Shown: positions 32,749 to 48,518 of the stretch, piece after piece | Numbering within the stretch: the first letter of the stretch is position 1 | Layout: every line of letters begins with the position of its first letter | DNA from: a virus | Lineage: Duplodnaviria; Caudoviricetes | DNA: 64,000 nt | Strand: one strand, 5' to 3' | Virus record (IMG/VR): IMGVR_UViG_3300029798_000001 | Position numbers and translations under genes: made by a program | Notes under the pieces: generated by a model | Told to the model about the DNA's origin: nothing | Seen by the model: only the letters and a program-made list of their open reading frames with translations | The model's database searches: none

Positions 32749-32875
32749 GATAAATCTCCTTGTATAATATTTAGTGTTTTTGCTTGTCATTAAACTTTAA
32801 TATTAATGTGGCAATGCAATGATAAATATCATGGTAAACACTTAGATGGTTATATCACAAAAGGAGACACCAAAA

Positions 32876-33016
32876 ATGTCAAAATTATTACAACAATTTA
32901 CCAAATTGTTTTCAGCCCAGCAATCTAGACTAGAAGCATTTATGAACGCCAAAGCACCAAAATCACATGCTGATGCAGAATATTGGCAAAAGTATTTTGA
33001 ATACAGGGGTATGTAA
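32876..33016 (+). CDS. Small protein, DUF3563-like
   Basis: Not in the ORF track (46 aa); ATAAATA at 32822-32828, AAGGAG RBS; RLEAFMNAKAPKSHADAEYWQK. Confidence 0.6.
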   Translation: MSKLLQQFTKLFSAQQSRLEAFMNAKAPKSHADAEYWQKYFEYRGM

Positions 33017-37516: not shown

Positions 37517-38110
37517 ATGTCTGGACTGATCCCGTTTGTTATTGAAAAATCTGGTAATTCAGAAAGATCATTTGATATTTTTTCTCGGTTATTAAAGGAT
37601 AGAATTATTTTTGTGAATGGCACAATCTCTACAGAAATGAGTCATGTTGTTGTGGCGCAATTATTATTCCTTGAATCAGAAGATCCCGATAAGGATATTT
37701 TTATGTATCTAAACTCTCCCGGCGGAGAAGTGACGGCTGGGATGGCGATCTACGATACCATGAACTTCATCAAACCCGATGTCTCAACAATAGTGCAAGG
37801 ACAATGTTGTAGTATGGGTAGTTGCCTAGCACAAGCAGGTGCCGCAGGTAAACGACTAATTCTGCCCACAGCCCGTACAATGATTCATCAACCGTCGGGT
37901 GGCGCACATGGGCAAGCAACAGATATTCAGATTCAAGCACAAGAAATACTTAAAATGAAGAAATACCTAACAGAGATTTATGTCAAGCATAACTCTGCTG
38001 GCAAAACATTTGAGCAGTTAAGTGCTGACATGGAACGAGATTTCTTTATGTCAGCAGAAGAAGCTGTAGCATACGGCCTGGCCGATAGGATTATTTCTAA
38101 GCGTGACTGA
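37517..38110 (+). CDS. clpP: ATP-dependent Clp protease proteolytic subunit
   Basis: [32 protein letters not shown] (Ser), MIHQPSGG (His), [12 protein letters not shown] (Asp); extended -10 TGTTATAAT at 37485-37493. Confidence 0.96.
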
Positions 38111-39422
38111 TAAAAACATATTCTGTAATGCTCCTTGGTATGAATTACAAATTTATTGGGATGGTAGTTTAGGATTTTGCTGTCAAGAAGATCATAAATT
38201 ATATCCTGATAATCTAAGTAGGCATTACAACGTTAGTCAGATGACCATTGCAGAATGGTTTGATAGTGAACCTATGCGAGCAGCACGTCTAGGCATGCTA
38301 GGATCTAAGCCTAACAGTATTTGCCGCCGGTGCTATCATGAACAAGAGCATAACGGTACCAGCCGTAGGCACAAGTCCAATCAAAAAAGTGTTATCTTTA
38401 CTAAGACAGCATTTAATGAAAGTTATTTACAAAGCCCGGGCTATACAAAGTTTGAATCAAGCCGTACCAATCAAGGTGCATATGATGGCATGCCTATCGA
38501 CTTACATATCGACTTGGGTAATTACTGTAACCTTGCTTGTAAAATGTGCAGGCCGCAGGCCAGTAGTGTAATTGCTGCACAGGAAGTTAAATGGGGTAAC
38601 AAGGATGCTCTACAATACGTAGGCACCGATTGGACACGTGACGAAGCAGTGTGGTCACGTGTATTGAACGAATTAGCCAGTATTCCAAATCTTAATAACA
38701 TCCATTTTATGGGCGGCGAAACACTAATTACCAAGCGATTTGAAGATTTTGTTGACTACATGATTGCACGTGGGCGCACAGATTTACATTTTAGTTTTGT
38801 TACCAATGGCACTACATTTAATGAGTCCTTGCTCGACAAGCTCACGCAGTTTAAACGAGTTGGTATTGAGGTAAGCATAGAAACAACAACAGAACATAAT
38901 GCCTATCAACGTCAAGGAACCAATACTGAGCAGGTATTAAAGAACCTTGGTCGTTACCTTGAATATTGCAATGGCGATAATATAACACTAACAGCAAGAC
39001 CTGCAATCAGCGCATTGACTATTGGGTATTATCATACCTTGTTGCGGTATTGCATTGAACGTAAAATAATTGTTAAAAGTTTATGGGTTAGTAAGCCAGA
39101 TTTCTTAAATCCAAACATACTGCCTGCAACAATAAAACAAGAATATATTTTAAATTATAAAAAGTTAATTGCAGATTACAATTTAGAGTCAGCCGATCAC
39201 TTAGTTGACTATAACGAAAGTGATCCAAATGAAATTACCCGCATAATTGCAAGCCAGGCTGACCAATGCATCAATATGCTAACATCGCCAAGTCCTCCAG
39301 ACAGCAAAGAACAATTAAAGACTATGGTTGCACAATGTCGTCGTTGGGATGACATATATGGATACGATGCTCGCCGATTATATCCTGAATTTACTACAAT
39401 ATTAAATGATTATGGCTATTGA
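38103..39422 (+). CDS. Radical SAM protein with N-terminal SPASM/twitch-like domain
   Basis: CNLACKMC (CxxxCxxC), [14 protein letters not shown]; N-terminal [13 protein letters not shown]...CRRCY. Confidence 0.88.
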
Positions 39423-39927: not shown

Positions 39928-41019
39928 ATGAAAGACGCAATTATATACGCAGGTTACAGTCGTTTGGCAGATGGCACTATGAAGTTTCGTACTGCTACTA
40001 GTGAAGTTCGTGTTAACCAGTTGGTGGCGTTTGGCGAAGAAGTACACATGATTCTTATCAAAGATGTTTACACCAAGTCTGCGGCGGCCAAAGAATTGCT
40101 CCGCATCAATCATGCAAACGGCGCCAAAGAACTTGAGGCATTTTATGTCGCCCAAGTTCGCGACGAAAACTCTTTCCGTGTAGTTAAACTCAAAGTTCCT
40201 TCTGTGGCCATGCAACAATTAACGGGCGCCAAGATTGAAGAAGAGCCATTGACTGCTAAAGAAGCCCGCAAAATCCGTGCCGAATTTAATCGCAAGGTTA
40301 AAGCGGCCTATGAAGCCAACTAAGGAGTAAGTTATGTCACAAGTAATTAGTACCTGGACCGAATACAAAGACAGCGTTCGCACCATGCCGTTCAAAGAAG
40401 TAGAAGGTCTTTTTGATTCCTACATGAACTGCCCAAGTCGTGGCGTCAAGGACGACATCATCATGAACATTCTTGAAGCTGAAATTGAACGCCGGATTGC
40501 CAATTGGGAGGTTGCTTATGTCTAAATTCCGTGTATATTGTAGCGAAACAGTCAGCTACATGGTTGAGGTAGAAGCCGAGTCGGCAGAAGCCGCCGAAGA
40601 GTTAGTAGCCAGTGGTGAAGTAGATCTTGGCGAGCCCTACGACTGCGCCAACTTTGAAATTGATGAAGTGTTACCTTTGGAGACCGTATAATGCAAGTAG
40701 GAGATCAAGTTCGGGTAGTAGGACAAGACACCACAGGTTCCGTTGTGGAAATGTCTGGTAATAAGGCGGTTATCGACGATGACGCTGCCGAAACCGATGA
40801 CTGTCGTTTAGAATTTCATATCAGTGACCTGGAGACCGTATAATGACAAATCCTATTCCGTTAAATGGTATGTTTGTTACCCCAAATAGTCTTGCTGATC
40901 TGGTCGAAATGATTGACCAAATTGGCACGCCAGAAGAACAGCGTATGGCATGGCTAGGTGCAAGTATGGCCCTAAATCTAGCTCATATGCTACACGAAAA
41001 ATCTTTAATGACGGTGTAA
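39928..41019 (+). CDS. Early array of five small ORFs: 39928-40323, 40334-40525, 40518-40691, 40691-40843, 40843-41019
   Basis: GGAG RBSs and TAATG couplings; the last two are not in the ORF track (50 and 58 aa). Confidence 0.65.
40678..40845 (+). repeat. Perfect 16-bp direct repeat TGGAGACCGTATAATG at 40678-40693 and 40830-40845
   Basis: Read directly from the sequence; flanks the 50-aa ORF. Confidence 0.9.
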
Positions 41020-41042
41020 TGCAAGTGTAATAATATACATAC

Positions 41043-41117
41043 TAAATAGAAATGCGGGCACAAGATAAGGTGTCGCTAGATCCGTAACTAGCACTAAAGA
41101 GCCCTGGCTCTTTTTTT
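41043..41117 (+). ncRNA. Candidate small late-transcribed structured RNA
   Basis: TAAATA, two hairpins (41054-41076, 41075-41092) and terminator AAAGAGC-CCTG-GCTCTTT with T run. Confidence 0.45.
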
Positions 41118-41171
41118 ATGGCGTAATAAAATTGTCATATCTTTTTCTCTGGCATTGCAGTAAATAAGCGT

Positions 41172-41972
41172 ATGCCAGAAAAAACTTACCGAAGTATTTT
41201 TATTAGCGATGTTCATCTAGGCACTCGTGACTGTAAAGCCGGAGCACTCAACAACTTTCTCAAAAACAACACCTGCGAAACATTATATCTTGTAGGCGAT
41301 ATAATCGATGCGTGGAAAATTCAACAGAATAAATGGCGTTGGAAACAAAGCCACACCAATGTGATCCGTCGCATCATGGGTCATGCCAAGCGTGGTACTC
41401 GTGTGGTGTATGTGGCTGGTAACCATGATGAATTCCTCCGCCCACTGATACCATTAGGTATTGGATTTGGTCTTATCGAAGTGGTAAATCAAACAGAACA
41501 CACAGGAGTAGATGGCAGGAATTATTTGGTCACACATGGTGATTTGTTTGATGGTATTACAAGACTGGCACCTTGGTTAGCATTTTTAGGTGACAAACTC
41601 TACGATTTTGTCTTAGACTTAAATTCAAAGTTTAATGCTGTGCGTCATAAACTTAGATTGGGCTACTGGAGTCTAAGCAAATATCTCAAATACAAAGTCA
41701 AAAAAGCTAGTGACTTTTTGTTTCAATTTGAACGAAATCTTGCCGCATATTGCAAAAAGCGTGGCTACGATGGTGTGATATGCGGGCACATACACCATGC
41801 AGAAATTAAAGAGATTGATGGCGTTACATATATGAATGATGGAGATTGGGTCGAATCAATGACAGCATTGGTCGAACATCACGACGGGCGTTGGGAGATA
41901 GTAACTTGGACACAGGAGACTGATGATGTGGTTGCTGATAATACTGGCAGTGAACATAAACAATCCTGCTGA
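41172..41972 (+). CDS. plcP: PlcP-like manganese-dependent phospholipase C (metallophosphoesterase, often annotated UDP-2,3-diacylglucosamine hydrolase)
   Basis: FISDVHLG, LVGDIIDAW, GNHDEFLR (LpxH has GNRD), HGDLFD, YWSLS, GVICGHIHH, MNDGDWVES; TAAATA 5 nt before ATG. Confidence 0.75.
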   Translation: MPEKTYRSIFISDVHLGTRDCKAGALNNFLKNNTCETLYLVGDIIDAWKIQQNKWRWKQSHTNVIRRIMGHAKRGTRVVYVAGNHDEFLRPLIPLGIGFGLIEVVNQTEHTGVDGRNYLVTHGDLFDGITRLAPWLAFLGDKLYDFVLDLNSKFNAVRHKLRLGYWSLSKYLKYKVKKASDFLFQFERNLAAYCKKRGYDGVICGHIHHAEIKEIDGVTYMNDGDWVESMTALVEHHDGRWEIVTWTQETDDVVADNTGSEHKQSC

Positions 41973-42099
41973 TCAACCCGGACGGATAACCATTGAATTT
42001 GATAATGAACAGGCTTGTGTTCGTGCTCAGCATAGTGTAAAATATCAATTCAAATTTGAAGGATTCAAGGTCCAATCACAATGCCAAAAACTATATTAG
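41926..42099 (+). CDS. Small exported/membrane-anchored protein between plcP and agt
   Basis: Not in the ORF track (57 aa); AGGAG RBS; MWLLIILAV..., two Cys. Confidence 0.55.
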   Translation: MWLLIILAVNINNPADQPGRITIEFDNEQACVRAQHSVKYQFKFEGFKVQSQCQKLY

Positions 42100-43088
42100 T
42101 AGTAACTGACAATGTTCCAAATCAAATCAATGGAGTGGTCACAACTTTCAAAGCCCTGGAAGACCACTGTAATAGTAACGGGCATCGTATTGTATATATT
42201 AATCCCAGGGAGTTCCCTCATTTTGCTTGCCCTGGTTATCCTGAAGTTAAAATCTGCTGGCCACACGGCATTTCAAAGAAGATTAAGGCGTTACAGCCGG
42301 CGTATATTCACATTGCCACCGAAGGACCAGTAGGCTTATTCGCGAGGTGGTGGTGTGAGCGCAATCATATTCCTTATAATACTAGTTATCATACTGACTT
42401 TGCCAAGTTCCTAAAGAAAATGTATGGCATGCCAGAGTCTTGGACTTGGTGGTATCTTCGTTGGTTCCATAAGAATAGTCACCGGGTATTGGTTACAACC
42501 GAAAGCATTAGACAAGAATTAGTTGCACGAGGTTTTCAAAATCTGCGGGTATGGACCCGGGGAGTAGATAGAACCGTCTTTAACAGCAGTCACCGTGGTG
42601 AAACTGTGGCAGGCCGTCCTATCCTACTGTCAGTAGGCCGTGTTAGTGTTGAAAAAGGTCTAGATGATTTTTGTCGATTAGAAATTCCTGGTGCTACTAA
42701 AATTGTAGTAGGCGATGGCCCATACCGTAGAGATTTAGAACGCAGATATCCCGAGATACATTTTGTAGGAACAAAAACCGGAACGCAGTTGGCCCGTTAC
42801 TATGCTCAAGCCGATGTATTTGTATTTCCAAGTCGTGCTGATACCTTTGGAGTGGTCAACATTGAAGCCCTAGCCTGCGGAACTCCGGTAGCGGCCTATC
42901 CTGTTGCTGGACCCAAGGATATCGTTGAACCAGGCCTGACTGGATTCCTTAACGATAATCTACAATCGGCAGTAGAACAGTGTATGACACTAGATCGTTC
43001 CTGGGTAGAAGATGCTAGCCTAAAATGGACTTGGGCAGAGTGCTGGCATATATTTGAAGAAAACCTAATAGACTGTTCTGTAGTCTAA
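42081..43088 (+). CDS. agt: GT4 glycosyltransferase, Agt-like (diacylglycerol glycosyl/glucuronosyltransferase)
   Basis: VTDN..NQINGVVTT, IHIATEGPVG, TSYHT, VGRVSVEKG, ADVFVFPSRADTFG..NIEALACGTPVAAYPV.GP. Confidence 0.75.
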   Translation: MPKTILVVTDNVPNQINGVVTTFKALEDHCNSNGHRIVYINPREFPHFACPGYPEVKICWPHGISKKIKALQPAYIHIATEGPVGLFARWWCERNHIPYNTSYHTDFAKFLKKMYGMPESWTWWYLRWFHKNSHRVLVTTESIRQELVARGFQNLRVWTRGVDRTVFNSSHRGETVAGRPILLSVGRVSVEKGLDDFCRLEIPGATKIVVGDGPYRRDLERRYPEIHFVGTKTGTQLARYYAQADVFVFPSRADTFGVVNIEALACGTPVAAYPVAGPKDIVEPGLTGFLNDNLQSAVEQCMTLDRSWVEDASLKWTWAECWHIFEENLIDCSVV

Positions 43089-43100
43089 AAACAACGGTTT

Positions 43101-43126
43101 AAAACCCCTTTAAATAGGGGTTTTTT
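43101..43126 (+). terminator. Rho-independent terminator
   Basis: AAAACCCC-N8-GGGGTTTTTT; homologous to 9758-9781. Confidence 0.8.
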
Positions 43127-43143
43127 ATGAGTTGACCAAATGG

Positions 43144-45306: not shown

Positions 45307-48300
45307 TTATATACTAATTGATTCTGTTACTTCGGTAGCAAGCAATCGATTTACATATCCTTTGATCATCTCTAGTTCAAAGGATTGTTCTTGTAATCGT
45401 AATCCAGAAACAAATCGACTTTCAATTTCAGCAAACTCCGACAAGTTTCTGTTGACTACAACATCCTTAACAAACTTCATATCCGTAATAGGATAGATAT
45501 TATTAAAGCGGCAACTTGTTAATATGCTGTCAGCAAATAGGTTAATATGGTGATCGGTGATTATGTTATAGTGTTCAATCGTGTCCCAAATTAGCTCACG
45601 TTTAACTAGAGTAATTTCTTGTCCGTGTTCATTTACTGTGACGGTACCAACTGGTGTATCATCACTCATTGGATATGTAAATGTGCCAGCCTGTTTGTTA
45701 AAGATTCTATGCTGATCAAATGTACGCAGTCTAGTTCCGTCACTAAATGTTAACTGGTTATACCGAGTTCCAGTTTCGCCACGCTTGATCCATAATGGTC
45801 GGGCTTGTGCATATTGTCCTAGATCAAAGTTCCATGTCAATAATAAATCACCATTGTTGATATCTTCGATTGGTTTGTAAGTTCCGTCAGCTAGGCTGAT
45901 CATTGTTCCTTTTAGTAAACATAGACCTGAAAATCCAACCTCGGGGCCGGAATAATATGTGCCTGCATTGGTAGTAACATAGGCGTATACAGTAAATGGT
46001 TGGTCTGATGTGCCGGTGCTAATTGTAATTTTTTCTGTGCCCGGGATATTGGCAAGATTACCAGCAACATATTTGTCAACAGTGCTACCGGAAGTGACAA
46101 TAACACCATATTCTATGACCGGGGCCACATTGGCCACCAATACATTGGCGTATCCTGATCCACCGCTGGTTTCGTATTCACTACTGGTTTTAGTAATTGT
46201 AATTGATTGTATAGTAGGCAGAATATTTTGACTAGGAACCGATGCTGCACCCACACCAGTGAGTTGACTGCCGTTACCAAACAAGTAAGAACCAGTGATG
46301 TTACCTACAGCACTAATGTTGCCTGATGTAGTTAGGTTACCGGTATTATCAAATGTCCACGAACCTTGTAGGCCATTGCCAGTGTAGGTGCTGATGTTTA
46401 TAGTGCCATCTGAACCATTGGTTATGCAACCAGCATAGAATCCGTTGGCATAGAAACTGGTCAGGCTAACTGGGCTACCGTTCCCGCCATCTAGGCCAGT
46501 CCAGCCTTTACCAGCACTACCCAAACGTCCACCTTGTGGGGTTGTCAATTCGCCTGCGGAATCAAATATCCAGGATTTAGCACCAGTAGCAGTTTGTATT
46601 GTAACTAAATTACCGGCCGCTAAGGTCGCTGAGTTACCTGAATAGTCTAAACCTAAATTTACAGCAAATGGATCAAGAATGTTGGCAGTTATGCCTGCTG
46701 TGCCTGCTGTGCCCAAAGTCCATACAGCCCCGCCACCTGGAATAGATAAGTTACCGGTGGTGTCAAAAACCCATTGTTTCTCTAATGGATCGGTACCAAT
46801 ATTAGCGTTTAGCGTTATATTACCATATGATCCAACATAACCTGGTAATGCGTTGCCGCCTAGCTCAATTCCACCGGTCCAAAATTGGCCGTCGCTGTTC
46901 AGCAATAATCTATGTCCGTTGTAGCCTAACCAAAGTCCTTCTTCTGGATCGCCAAGAGCACTAGTAATCGTGCCGCCGCCTGGTAATGTCAACAGACCAG
47001 CGTTGTCAAATGTCCAGTTCTGATATCCAGTATTGACCCCATCGCCAGTGGTTAGTTGAATAGGAGTCCAAGAATTAATTGCCAAATTAGCAAGGTTGTC
47101 AACAACATAATGATTTAACGCACCTGGAATAGATAAGTTACCGGTGGTGTCAAATGTCCAAGTTGCGTTGCCATAGCTTGTTGTCAGGGTTATATTGCTA
47201 GGTGTGCCATCTCCAGCATAGATATCGCTTGTAAAGATACCAGGAGCATTGAGATAATCGGCATACAAGGTCATCTCACCGCCATTGTCTACATATCGTA
47301 GAGTAGAATCGGCGCCAATGTTGCCAGCTACATTAATCTGAATATCACCTGCGTTACCTGCGGCACCCGCACTACCTGATCCACTATAAGGCTGACCATT
47401 GGCGTAGTTGATACTACTTGAGTTGCTGGGCAAAGTTAAATTACCAGTGTTGTCCAGCGTCCAACTTGCAGTTATACCTGATCCTGCACCTGTTTGTAAA
47501 GCAATATTACCATAGGTGTTGTTTACTTGAATAGCATTGGCATCACCATTAGCCGGAAGAACCACGGCCGCTGTTGCAGCATGTGACAAGTCTGCATTTT
47601 CTAAATAGATGCCATTGAGATCATAAATGGCATCACCGCTGAATCCAATGTTGCCGGTACTGGTTACAACGCCAGTTAATTGACTACCGTTACCGATAAA
47701 ATAATTTGCCGTAACATTGCCAGCTGTATTTAGATTTGCACCGCGGACATTACCGCTAGCACTTACTATGCCACCGGTTATTACATTCCCACTGGTTACG
47801 TTACCAGAAACGGCTAACGCATTTGTAGTATTATTAAACGTAAATCCGGCAGTTCCGCCAAATGCACCAGCATTGTTGTATTGAACTTGTGTATTAGCGC
47901 CGGCTGGAGTAGCATTGCCAGATCCACCGGTTTGTGCTGTCCAAGTTAAATTACCTGTACCATCTGTTTGCAATACATAACCGTTTGAGCCTCCTGTTAT
48001 ATGTAGATTACCAACAGCGATTGTTAATGTACCTATATTACTAATATTGGCCGTGCCAATATTAGCATAGGAAGTGTTTAGATATTGTGTATATGTGTTA
48101 AGCCAAAGTAAACTAGGTGAACCTAAATTGCGAATACGAGTTTGATCTGGAACTACGTGGGCGTTTCCCTGTATAACACCAATACCATTAGGATTTAAAA
48201 TTAAATTACCGTTGGTATTAGTGGTTAAAATACTGTTGTTGGCTATTTGAATATTAGATCCAACTGGGCCAGAGGTAAAAACATTGGCAAAGTTTAAGTT

Positions 48301-48384
48301 TACATCATTAAATGCGGTGCGTAACGGGTCGCCTGTGCCATCATTTGGTAGTGCGCCGATGTTGATTACAATGGGTTGTGACAT
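45307..48384 (-). CDS. Modular tail fibre with gp9/gp10-like N-terminus, six W.FD..G.L..P modules and C-terminal Hint domain
   Basis: Start MSQPIVINIGALPNDGTGDPLRTAF; G/N/T-rich; CLLKGTMISLADG..KPIEDI at 45921; ATAAATA on the minus strand at 48413-48419. Confidence 0.8.
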   Translation of the reverse strand: MSQPIVINIGALPNDGTGDPLRTAFNDVNLNFANVFTSGPVGSNIQIANNSILTTNTNGNLILNPNGIGVIQGNAHVVPDQTRIRNLGSPSLLWLNTYTQYLNTSYANIGTANISNIGTLTIAVGNLHITGGSNGYVLQTDGTGNLTWTAQTGGSGNATPAGANTQVQYNNAGAFGGTAGFTFNNTTNALAVSGNVTSGNVITGGIVSASGNVRGANLNTAGNVTANYFIGNGSQLTGVVTSTGNIGFSGDAIYDLNGIYLENADLSHAATAAVVLPANGDANAIQVNNTYGNIALQTGAGSGITASWTLDNTGNLTLPSNSSSINYANGQPYSGSGSAGAAGNAGDIQINVAGNIGADSTLRYVDNGGEMTLYADYLNAPGIFTSDIYAGDGTPSNITLTTSYGNATWTFDTTGNLSIPGALNHYVVDNLANLAINSWTPIQLTTGDGVNTGYQNWTFDNAGLLTLPGGGTITSALGDPEEGLWLGYNGHRLLLNSDGQFWTGGIELGGNALPGYVGSYGNITLNANIGTDPLEKQWVFDTTGNLSIPGGGAVWTLGTAGTAGITANILDPFAVNLGLDYSGNSATLAAGNLVTIQTATGAKSWIFDSAGELTTPQGGRLGSAGKGWTGLDGGNGSPVSLTSFYANGFYAGCITNGSDGTINISTYTGNGLQGSWTFDNTGNLTTSGNISAVGNITGSYLFGNGSQLTGVGAASVPSQNILPTIQSITITKTSSEYETSGGSGYANVLVANVAPVIEYGVIVTSGSTVDKYVAGNLANIPGTEKITISTGTSDQPFTVYAYVTTNAGTYYSGPEVGFSGLCLLKGTMISLADGTYKPIEDINNGDLLLTWNFDLGQYAQARPLWIKRGETGTRYNQLTFSDGTRLRTFDQHRIFNKQAGTFTYPMSDDTPVGTVTVNEHGQEITLVKRELIWDTIEHYNIITDHHINLFADSILTSCRFNNIYPITDMKFVKDVVVNRNLSEFAEIESRFVSGLRLQEQSFELEMIKGYVNRLLATEVTESISI
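46734..47154. repeat. Exact 34-bp direct repeat (46734-46767 and 47121-47154) within the tail fibre gene
   Basis: CACCTGGAATAGATAAGTTACCGGTGGTGTCAAA in both places; encodes FDTTGNLSIPG. Confidence 0.9.
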
Positions 48385-48518
48385 ATTGGGGATCCTGGTT
48401 AGCCTTTTGAAGTATTTATGGCTAGATGCTCGTCCTAAAGGCATTGCGTATTGTGCAACTTGGTGTTATAATTATTTCATGCTGTTGTTAAACAGCGTTT
48501 AACAGAGAAAGGTATCAA

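Follow-up and report, generated by a model that had tools for sequence, protein, structure and literature searches.

The 64,000-nucleotide (nt) stretch of DNA analyzed here (the window), IMG/VR virus record IMGVR_UViG_3300029798_000001 (Duplodnaviria; Caudoviricetes), carries three co-oriented and overlapping genes (41172-43088) that are flanked by two terminator-like hairpins. They encode a metallophosphoesterase of the PlcP family, a small protein of 57 amino acids (aa) and an Agt-type glycosyltransferase of family 4 (GT4). We consider it likely that these genes are the phage-borne counterpart of the PlcP-Agt lipid-renovation operon of bacteria and are expressed in the phosphate-starved host, and a giant lake phage is probably mining the membrane of its host for phosphorus during infection. 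This reading builds on the enzyme families, the intact catalytic residues, purifying selection on the genes, their order, the design of the promoter and the linkage to pstS in related phages. The open reading frame (ORF) list and Pfam agree with an earlier note on this DNA, which had read a metallophosphoesterase with GNHDE, a small ORF and a GT4.

The 266-aa protein matches Pfam Metallophos (E 2e-10), and its GNHDE is found at residues 83-87. The references for Pseudomonas aeruginosa and Sinorhizobium meliloti were two chromosome pieces filed as plasmids in PLSDB, and the loci were recognized by gene neighbourhood (cyaB/csaA and sinI/sinR, respectively), not by locus tag. The phage protein is 45.7% identical to its single match in S. 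meliloti, which lies beside sinR/sinI and is presumably SMc00171. The P. aeruginosa locus has the order csaA-like gene, helix-turn-helix gene, phosphoesterase, glycosyltransferase and cyaB, and because of this neighbourhood we identify it as PA3219-PA3218. Its phosphoesterase is 55.6% identical to the phage protein over 243 aa. At this locus, PA3219 and PA3218 have been described as PlcP and Agt1, respectively, and PA3219 itself is no more than 46-47% identical to validated PlcPs (PMC8528852).

In a maximum-likelihood tree, the PlcP family and true LpxH are split at 100/100 and the phage enzyme falls within the PlcP family, where the phage copies form one clade (98/99). The earlier note had proposed a phylogeny of this kind as a check on its PlcP claim, and the outcome is as it expected. 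The two NCBIfam models for LpxH score under their cut-offs, with 46.8 bits for NF003743 (cut-off 134) and 35.5 bits for TIGR01854 (cut-off 190). A true LpxH (249-315 bits) and a PlcP paralogue (27-53 bits) occur together in the beta- and gammaproteobacterial genomes of Methylotenera, Spectribacter and Ruthturnera, and in the alphaproteobacterial genomes of Hyphomonas and Roseomonas only the PlcP paralogue was found, with no true LpxH.

The motifs DxH, GD, GNHD, HGD and GHxH are intact in the phage protein, and the metal ligands and catalytic residues D13, H15, D43, N84, H85, H122, H206 and H208 are invariant in 32 phage and bacterial sequences. The signatures are those of PlcP, with GNHDE instead of the GNRD of LpxH, CGHIHH instead of HGHTHRP, and HGDxFD instead of HGDxLCTDD; SDVHLGT, YWSLS and GDWVES are further PlcP-type signatures. 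In the AlphaFold2 (AF2) model, an LpxH-like core with a predicted local distance difference test (pLDDT) score above 90 carries a helical cap inserted at residues 123-197. The 25 best PDB matches of this model are all LpxH, at 17-23% identity, and no PlcP structure was found among the PDB fold-search matches. The phage protein thus resembles LpxH (E. coli b0524; PDB 5B49, 5K8K, 6PH9) in its calcineurin-like di-metal fold, in the helical cap after the HGD motif and in having all metal ligands, but differs from it by this low identity, GNHD and CGHIHH, a different cap and a separate clade. We therefore classify the phage phosphoesterase as PlcP and not LpxH, and it would be expected to hydrolyze phosphatidylcholine, phosphatidylethanolamine or phosphatidylglycerol to diacylglycerol.

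One bacterial PlcP homologue, on a 670-kb contig of a Methylotenera metagenome-assembled genome (MAG; L046:5977-6744), is nested in the viral clade on a long branch, without an agt neighbour and without the phage-type promoter. It may represent a phage-to-bacterium transfer or give a hint at the host lineage.

The 335-aa protein matches Pfam Glyco_transf_4, Glycos_transf_1 and Glyco_trans_1_4 (E 1e-18 to 1e-22), and shares 39.6% identity over 328 aa with the protein of the PA3218 locus. This protein, Agt1, makes monoglucosyldiacylglycerol (MGDG) when expressed in E. coli (PMC8528852). Directly after the phosphoesterase, about 30 of the 80 fetched bacterial loci have a GT4 that is 37-46% identical to that of the phage, and in four bacterial genomes the plcP-adjacent gene is the sole strong match to the phage GT4 (266-298 bits, while other GT4s reach at most 49 bits). 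The GTcp (Pelagibacter) preprint describes the Agt clade as enzymes of about 334 aa with a His104-Asp256 dyad, in which Asp replaces the usual GT4 Glu, and with the motifs GRVAxEKN and FPSxTDTFG; GTcp, Atu2297, MED193_17359 and PB7211_983 were compared by published motif and reported identities only. The phage protein has H104, GRVSVEK (186-192), FPSRADTFG (249-257, with D254) and E262, and across 51 sequences from phages and bacteria, the conservation of H104, R187, K192, T255, F256, G257 and E262 is 97% or higher. The phage GT4 is accordingly classed as Agt-type, and it would form MGDG or glucuronic acid diacylglycerol (GADG) from diacylglycerol and a UDP-sugar. We have little doubt that the family assignment of both enzymes, as judged from sequence, is secure. 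Identities, tree, motifs and the plcP-to-agt order thus bear out the earlier note, which had read the pair as PlcP and Agt and not as LpxH with a lipopolysaccharide (LPS) transferase.

In the window and in its closest relative, Agt has the Asp that is typical of Agt (FPSRADTFG). FPS(R/K)WETFG, with the Glu that is canonical for GT4, is found in some other phage copies (L085:5130-6125, L004:2537-3520 and similar viral loci). With 50-85% identity, the lineages of agt in phages are far more divergent than the adjoining plcP (79-90%).

Homologues of the cassette were found in at least 600 IMG/VR viral-contig stretches, of which 599 were confirmed; the data sets are from lakes and, in some cases, from marine waters. 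The GT4 is present in 45 of the 81 best viral loci, the small ORF in 46, and pstS, within the flanks, in 6. The order pstS, plcP, small ORF, agt is seen on a 338-kb contig with a PlcP 90% identical to that of the window. Compared with relatives, the ratio of nonsynonymous to synonymous substitution rates (dN/dS) is 0.02-0.05 for plcP and 0.11-0.23 for agt, with synonymous sites at or near saturation. The part of the small ORF outside the overlaps has a dN/dS of 0.17-0.34 in comparisons with four relatives, and of 0.60 with the near-identical L127, where dS is just 0.10. All three genes are under purifying selection.

Phage-clade plcP also occurs on contigs of a Haliscomenobacter MAG (L002), a Gammaproteobacteria MAG (L003) and a Bacteroidia MAG (L004). 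L003 and L004 have the small phage gene as well, and L004 the GT4. These are most likely phage contigs mis-binned into bacterial MAGs.

The putative promoter of the operon (P2, Table 1) has the sequence GCGTAAT-AAAA-TTGTCAT-ATCT-TTTTCTC (41121-41149), followed by 11 nt, TAAATA (41161-41166), 5 nt and the ATG at 41172. The upstream unit P1 has CTTTAAT, GTGTAAT and GTGTAAT with a period of 11 base pairs (41003-41031), an 11-nt spacer and TAAATA (41043-41048), and P1, P2 and the pstS promoters of related phages share the same geometry. In 747 kb of viral loci, YTGTMAY-N4-YTGTMAY (at most one mismatch) gives 41 matches, and 23 of them are within 100 nt upstream of plcP. TAAATA followed by an in-frame start was detected in 44 of 73 distinct upstream regions, and 37 of these 44 also have a Pho-box-like repeat, with a spacer to TAAATA of 11 or 21-22 nt in 35 of the 37. 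Canonical Pho boxes (e.g., CTGTCAT-AAAA-TCGTAAC) and TAAATA are found upstream of pstS in related phages, where a leader and an AAGGAG come after TAAATA. Pho boxes at the same position are also seen for the plcP orthologues of the bacterial loci that were fetched. The distance from TAAATA to the start is kept at 4-5 nt in 40 of the 44 relatives, which supports a leaderless plcP mRNA. The plcP-orf57-agt mRNA is therefore probably leaderless, and transcription would start at or beside the plcP ATG. The earlier note had described a late-type leaderless promoter. Its leaderless part agrees with this conserved gap, but the late-type part is not supported, as the same Pho-box/TAAATA design precedes pstS in phages. 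Control of the phage plcP operon by PhoB would be in line with this design.

Several observations weigh against a phosphate-controlled lipid-renovation operon. The window's own Pho-box-like sites have two mismatches each, and sites with two mismatches are not enriched across the window (30 found, 24.9 expected), so the case for Pho boxes rests on the relatives. Furthermore, TAAATA is a poor sigma-70 -10 element and is identical to the final six bases of TATAAATA, the late promoter of T4 type, and the operon may thus be timed late and not depend on PhoB. Finally, many related phages have plcP without agt, which suggests that the glycolipid step is not always needed or is supplied by the host. 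The TAAATA of P2 is preceded by G and phased to the Pho-box-like repeats (compare T4-type TATAAATA). The window as a whole shows no enrichment of TAAATA, and just 5 ORFs have it at most 12 nt from the ATG; its position close to the ATG is therefore not a general trait of the genes in the window.

Elsewhere in the window, the Pho-box-like repeat TTGTCAT-TAAA-CTTTAAT (one mismatch), 21 nt and GATAAATA (32784-32828, plus strand) lie upstream of a 46-aa ORF starting at 32876, with AAGGAG in the leader between GATAAATA and the ORF. These elements may form a further phosphate-controlled promoter of this phage.

Table 1. Positions of the cassette genes and the predicted regulatory elements around them.
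Feature	Position	Strand	Evidence or remark
plcP, PlcP-family metallophosphoesterase (phospholipase C type), 266 aa	41172..41972	+	Pfam, NCBIfam, identity, tree, alignment, AF2 fold search, dN/dS
Conserved small gene of phages, 57 aa with the start at 41926 (58 aa with that at 41923)	41926..42099	+	Homologues, dN/dS, AF2
agt, Agt-type GT4 diacylglycerol glycosyltransferase, 335 aa	42081..43088	+	Pfam, identity, motifs, gene order, dN/dS
Promoter-like unit P1, upstream	41003..41048	+	Geometry as P2 and as pstS promoters of related phages
Two-hairpin RNA motif R1, downstream of P1	41047..41093	+	cmsearch 57.6 bits, E 3e-15
Intrinsic-terminator-like hairpin and T-run	41096..41118	+	Would end a small RNA unit and insulate the operon
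Operon promoter P2 (putative)	41121..41166	+	Pho-box-like half-sites, 11-nt spacer, TAAATA, comparison with relatives
Intrinsic-terminator-like hairpin and T-run closing the operon	43106..43127	+	Sequence

The proposed course of events would begin at low phosphate, when active host PhoB would bind the Pho-box-like repeats of P2. A leaderless transcript of all three genes would then run from the plcP ATG, or from next to it, to the terminator behind agt. PlcP, a di-metal phosphoesterase similar to LpxH whose helical cap would bind lipid, would cut inner-membrane glycerophospholipids into diacylglycerol and a phosphorylated head group, from which host phosphatases would provide phosphate for the nucleotide synthesis of the phage. 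Agt would move a sugar from a UDP-sugar to the diacylglycerol, and the resulting phosphorus-free glycolipid (of MGDG or GADG type) would keep the bilayer intact until lysis. Phosphate scavenging is the best-supported purpose that we can suggest for the cassette, since the linkage to pstS and the Pho-box-type promoters in related phages fit a phosphate-saving role.

Lipid remodelling by PlcP and Agt could also serve a changed membrane and not phosphorus, through a block of superinfection, receptor display, tuning of lysis or protection of the cell. Lipid renovation alters phage susceptibility and surface properties in bacteria, a topic of two reports (PMC9804370, PMC9938194), and TAAATA resembles the core of a late-type promoter. 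However, the cassette adjoins pstS in several phages and shares its Pho-box design, and phages that keep plcP without agt fit phosphate release better than glycolipid making, which makes this explanation unlikely. Another explanation is that the GT4 glycosylates a different acceptor, such as a protein, a polysaccharide primer or a phage component, and that its place next to plcP is inherited baggage. GT4 is indeed a very broad family, the best NCBIfam matches of the phage protein are all far under their cut-offs, and some related phage copies have Glu, not Asp, at the catalytic position. Set against this are 40% full-length identity to an enzyme shown to make MGDG, agreement in Agt-clade motifs and length, the recurrent plcP-to-agt order in the bacterial loci and the weak scores of other GT4 paralogues, and we find a different acceptor very unlikely.

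The source annotations of the homologues ('UDP-2,3-diacylglucosamine pyrophosphatase LpxH') suggest yet another function, where LpxH of lipid A synthesis and an LPS or cell-surface glycosyltransferase boost or alter the host lipopolysaccharide. Virome surveys likewise file viral lpxH under LPS biosynthesis, and the nearest solved structure is LpxH. Given the LpxH model scores under cut-off, the separate clade, the signatures that replace GNRD and HGHTHRP, the genomes with both proteins side by side and the alphaproteobacteria that keep the PlcP paralogue without a true LpxH, as well as a GT4 that groups with Agt and not with LPS transferases, such a role is highly improbable. We give still less credence to the cassette being recently captured host DNA without a function in the phage. 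Its closest cellular relatives are bacterial operons of the same order, but the phage copies form their own clade, and synonymous sites are saturated while the proteins are 79-90% identical and dN/dS is 0.02-0.23. The promoter, small gene and RNA motif are also phage-specific, and the cassette recurs across the viral stretches counted above.

The small ORF overlaps the end of plcP by 50 nt and the start of agt by 19 nt, and AGGAG is located 5-8 nt 5' of its ATG. The second of two ATGs is the start in most relatives (Table 1). From this arrangement, the small ORF is predicted to be translationally coupled to plcP and agt. The 45 distinct homologues all lack a stop or frameshift, and M2, W3, A9, D17, P19, C32 and C54 are invariant. 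The small ORF is a phage-specific and conserved gene that more than half of the related loci have, and the bacterial loci that were fetched gave no homologue of it. The earlier note had pointed to an extra 57-aa ORF between the two enzyme genes, and although the ORF is present, this conservation shows that it is not an oddity of this phage. The AF2 model of the small protein (pLDDT 93.7) has a beta-beta-alpha-beta fold, in which the hydrophobic N-terminus is a strand and not a membrane helix. A fold search against PDB gave no significant match, and matches among viral models were uncharacterized small phage proteins only. Complex prediction for PlcP and the 57-aa protein gave a score of 0.01, which counts neither for nor against contact.

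The RNA motif R1 comprises about 48 nt in two hairpins between P1 and the first terminator-like hairpin. A search with a covariance model gave 35 copies across 834 kb of related loci. Every copy adjoins the cassette on the strand of plcP, where it forms the plcP leader in some cases and follows agt in others. Compensatory changes are seen in 7 of 9 base pairs, and the loops AAGAUAR and CGUAA are conserved. No Rfam family passed its gathering threshold in the window, and the matches in the 40800-41300 region were at chance level. R1 may be a Pho-controlled small RNA or leader.

A broader proposal, which we put forward as possible but somewhat doubtful, is that the phage has a self-contained module of Pho-box promoter, leaderless plcP, phage-only 57-aa protein, agt and structured RNA, which would be turned on in hosts starved of phosphate. 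The phospholipid of the host membrane would be dismantled for phosphorus and the membrane rebuilt with glycolipid. Regulatory or targeting functions that are specific to the phage and have no counterpart in bacteria would fall to the small protein and the RNA. If this is true, viruses would recycle phosphorus widely in lakes and oceans, and this would have gone unnoticed because the gene is counted as 'lpxH'.

Among known systems, the bacterial 'type 2' operon with plcP followed by agt (Sebastian et al., 2016, PMC4796936; for PA3219-PA3218, PMC8528852) is similar to the phage cassette in enzyme families, order, tight coupling, catalytic motifs and a Pho-box-type repeat upstream, with 46-56% identity for PlcP and 40% for Agt1. 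The phage version differs in being virus-encoded, in the 57-aa gene inserted in the overlap between plcP and agt, in having TAAATA 5 nt from the ATG with a probably leaderless mRNA, and in the flanking structured RNA. In the isolated pelagimyophage Pelagibacter phage Mosig EXVC030M (MT647606; L001:4894-6729), plcP and pstS stand back-to-back in divergent orientation. The plcP product Mosig_00120, annotated as 'putative UDP-2,3-diacylglucosamine hydrolase', is a PlcP-family protein 52% identical to that of the window. However, agt is missing from this T4-like phage, and the small overlapping ORF that it does have is unrelated to the 57-aa gene. Our literature search found no published example of phage-encoded PlcP or Agt, but the search was incomplete and absence is not proven; the publications naming both PlcP and phages concern host remodelling and phage susceptibility.

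Cyanophage pstS, phoA and phoH are reportedly under host PhoB control, as Zeng and Chisholm are said to have described in 2012. They resemble the present case as host-derived phosphate-stress genes behind Pho boxes in T4-related aquatic phages, and the cassette is linked to pstS in relatives. The known viral phosphate genes pstS, phoA and phoH act on external phosphate, whereas the cassette would act on phosphorus from the membrane of the cell itself. Phage production is often limited by phosphorus, of which a genome of about 340 kb takes a large amount. If our reading is true, the cassette taps the cell's own membrane, which is among its larger phosphorus stores.

The cassette is common, yet it is filed under lipopolysaccharide synthesis in surveys of auxiliary metabolic genes, and the new reading gives a frequent viral gene a different inferred role. 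According to a 2025 virocell study, the course of lipid remodelling in infected cells is poorly known. The bacterial enzymes have working assays and mutants, which makes the system directly testable, and Mosig provides a cultured phage system for testing the idea.

We regard the window as phage DNA because of its PHROGs matches to ribonucleotide reductase, DNA ligase, GroEL and homing endonucleases; ClpP-like and tail-fibre-like ORFs were recognized by eye. No tRNA genes were found in the 64-kb window, and host assignment through GroEL and another conserved protein pointed only to various jumbo or T4-like phages, of Proteobacteria among other groups. Near-identical DNA is present in freshwater and lake metagenomes from several studies, and related contigs reach 338-353 kb. 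Upstream of the cassette (37517-39422, plus strand), a gene for a ClpP-like protease overlaps the 5' end of one for a 439-aa radical SAM protein, whose N-terminal part has a SPASM-type domain (Pfam). Downstream (45307-48444, minus strand), a 1045-aa Gly/Asn-rich fibre-like protein is encoded, and its C-terminal part, from '...GLCLLKGTMISLADG', may by eye be a Hint/intein-like autoprocessing domain.

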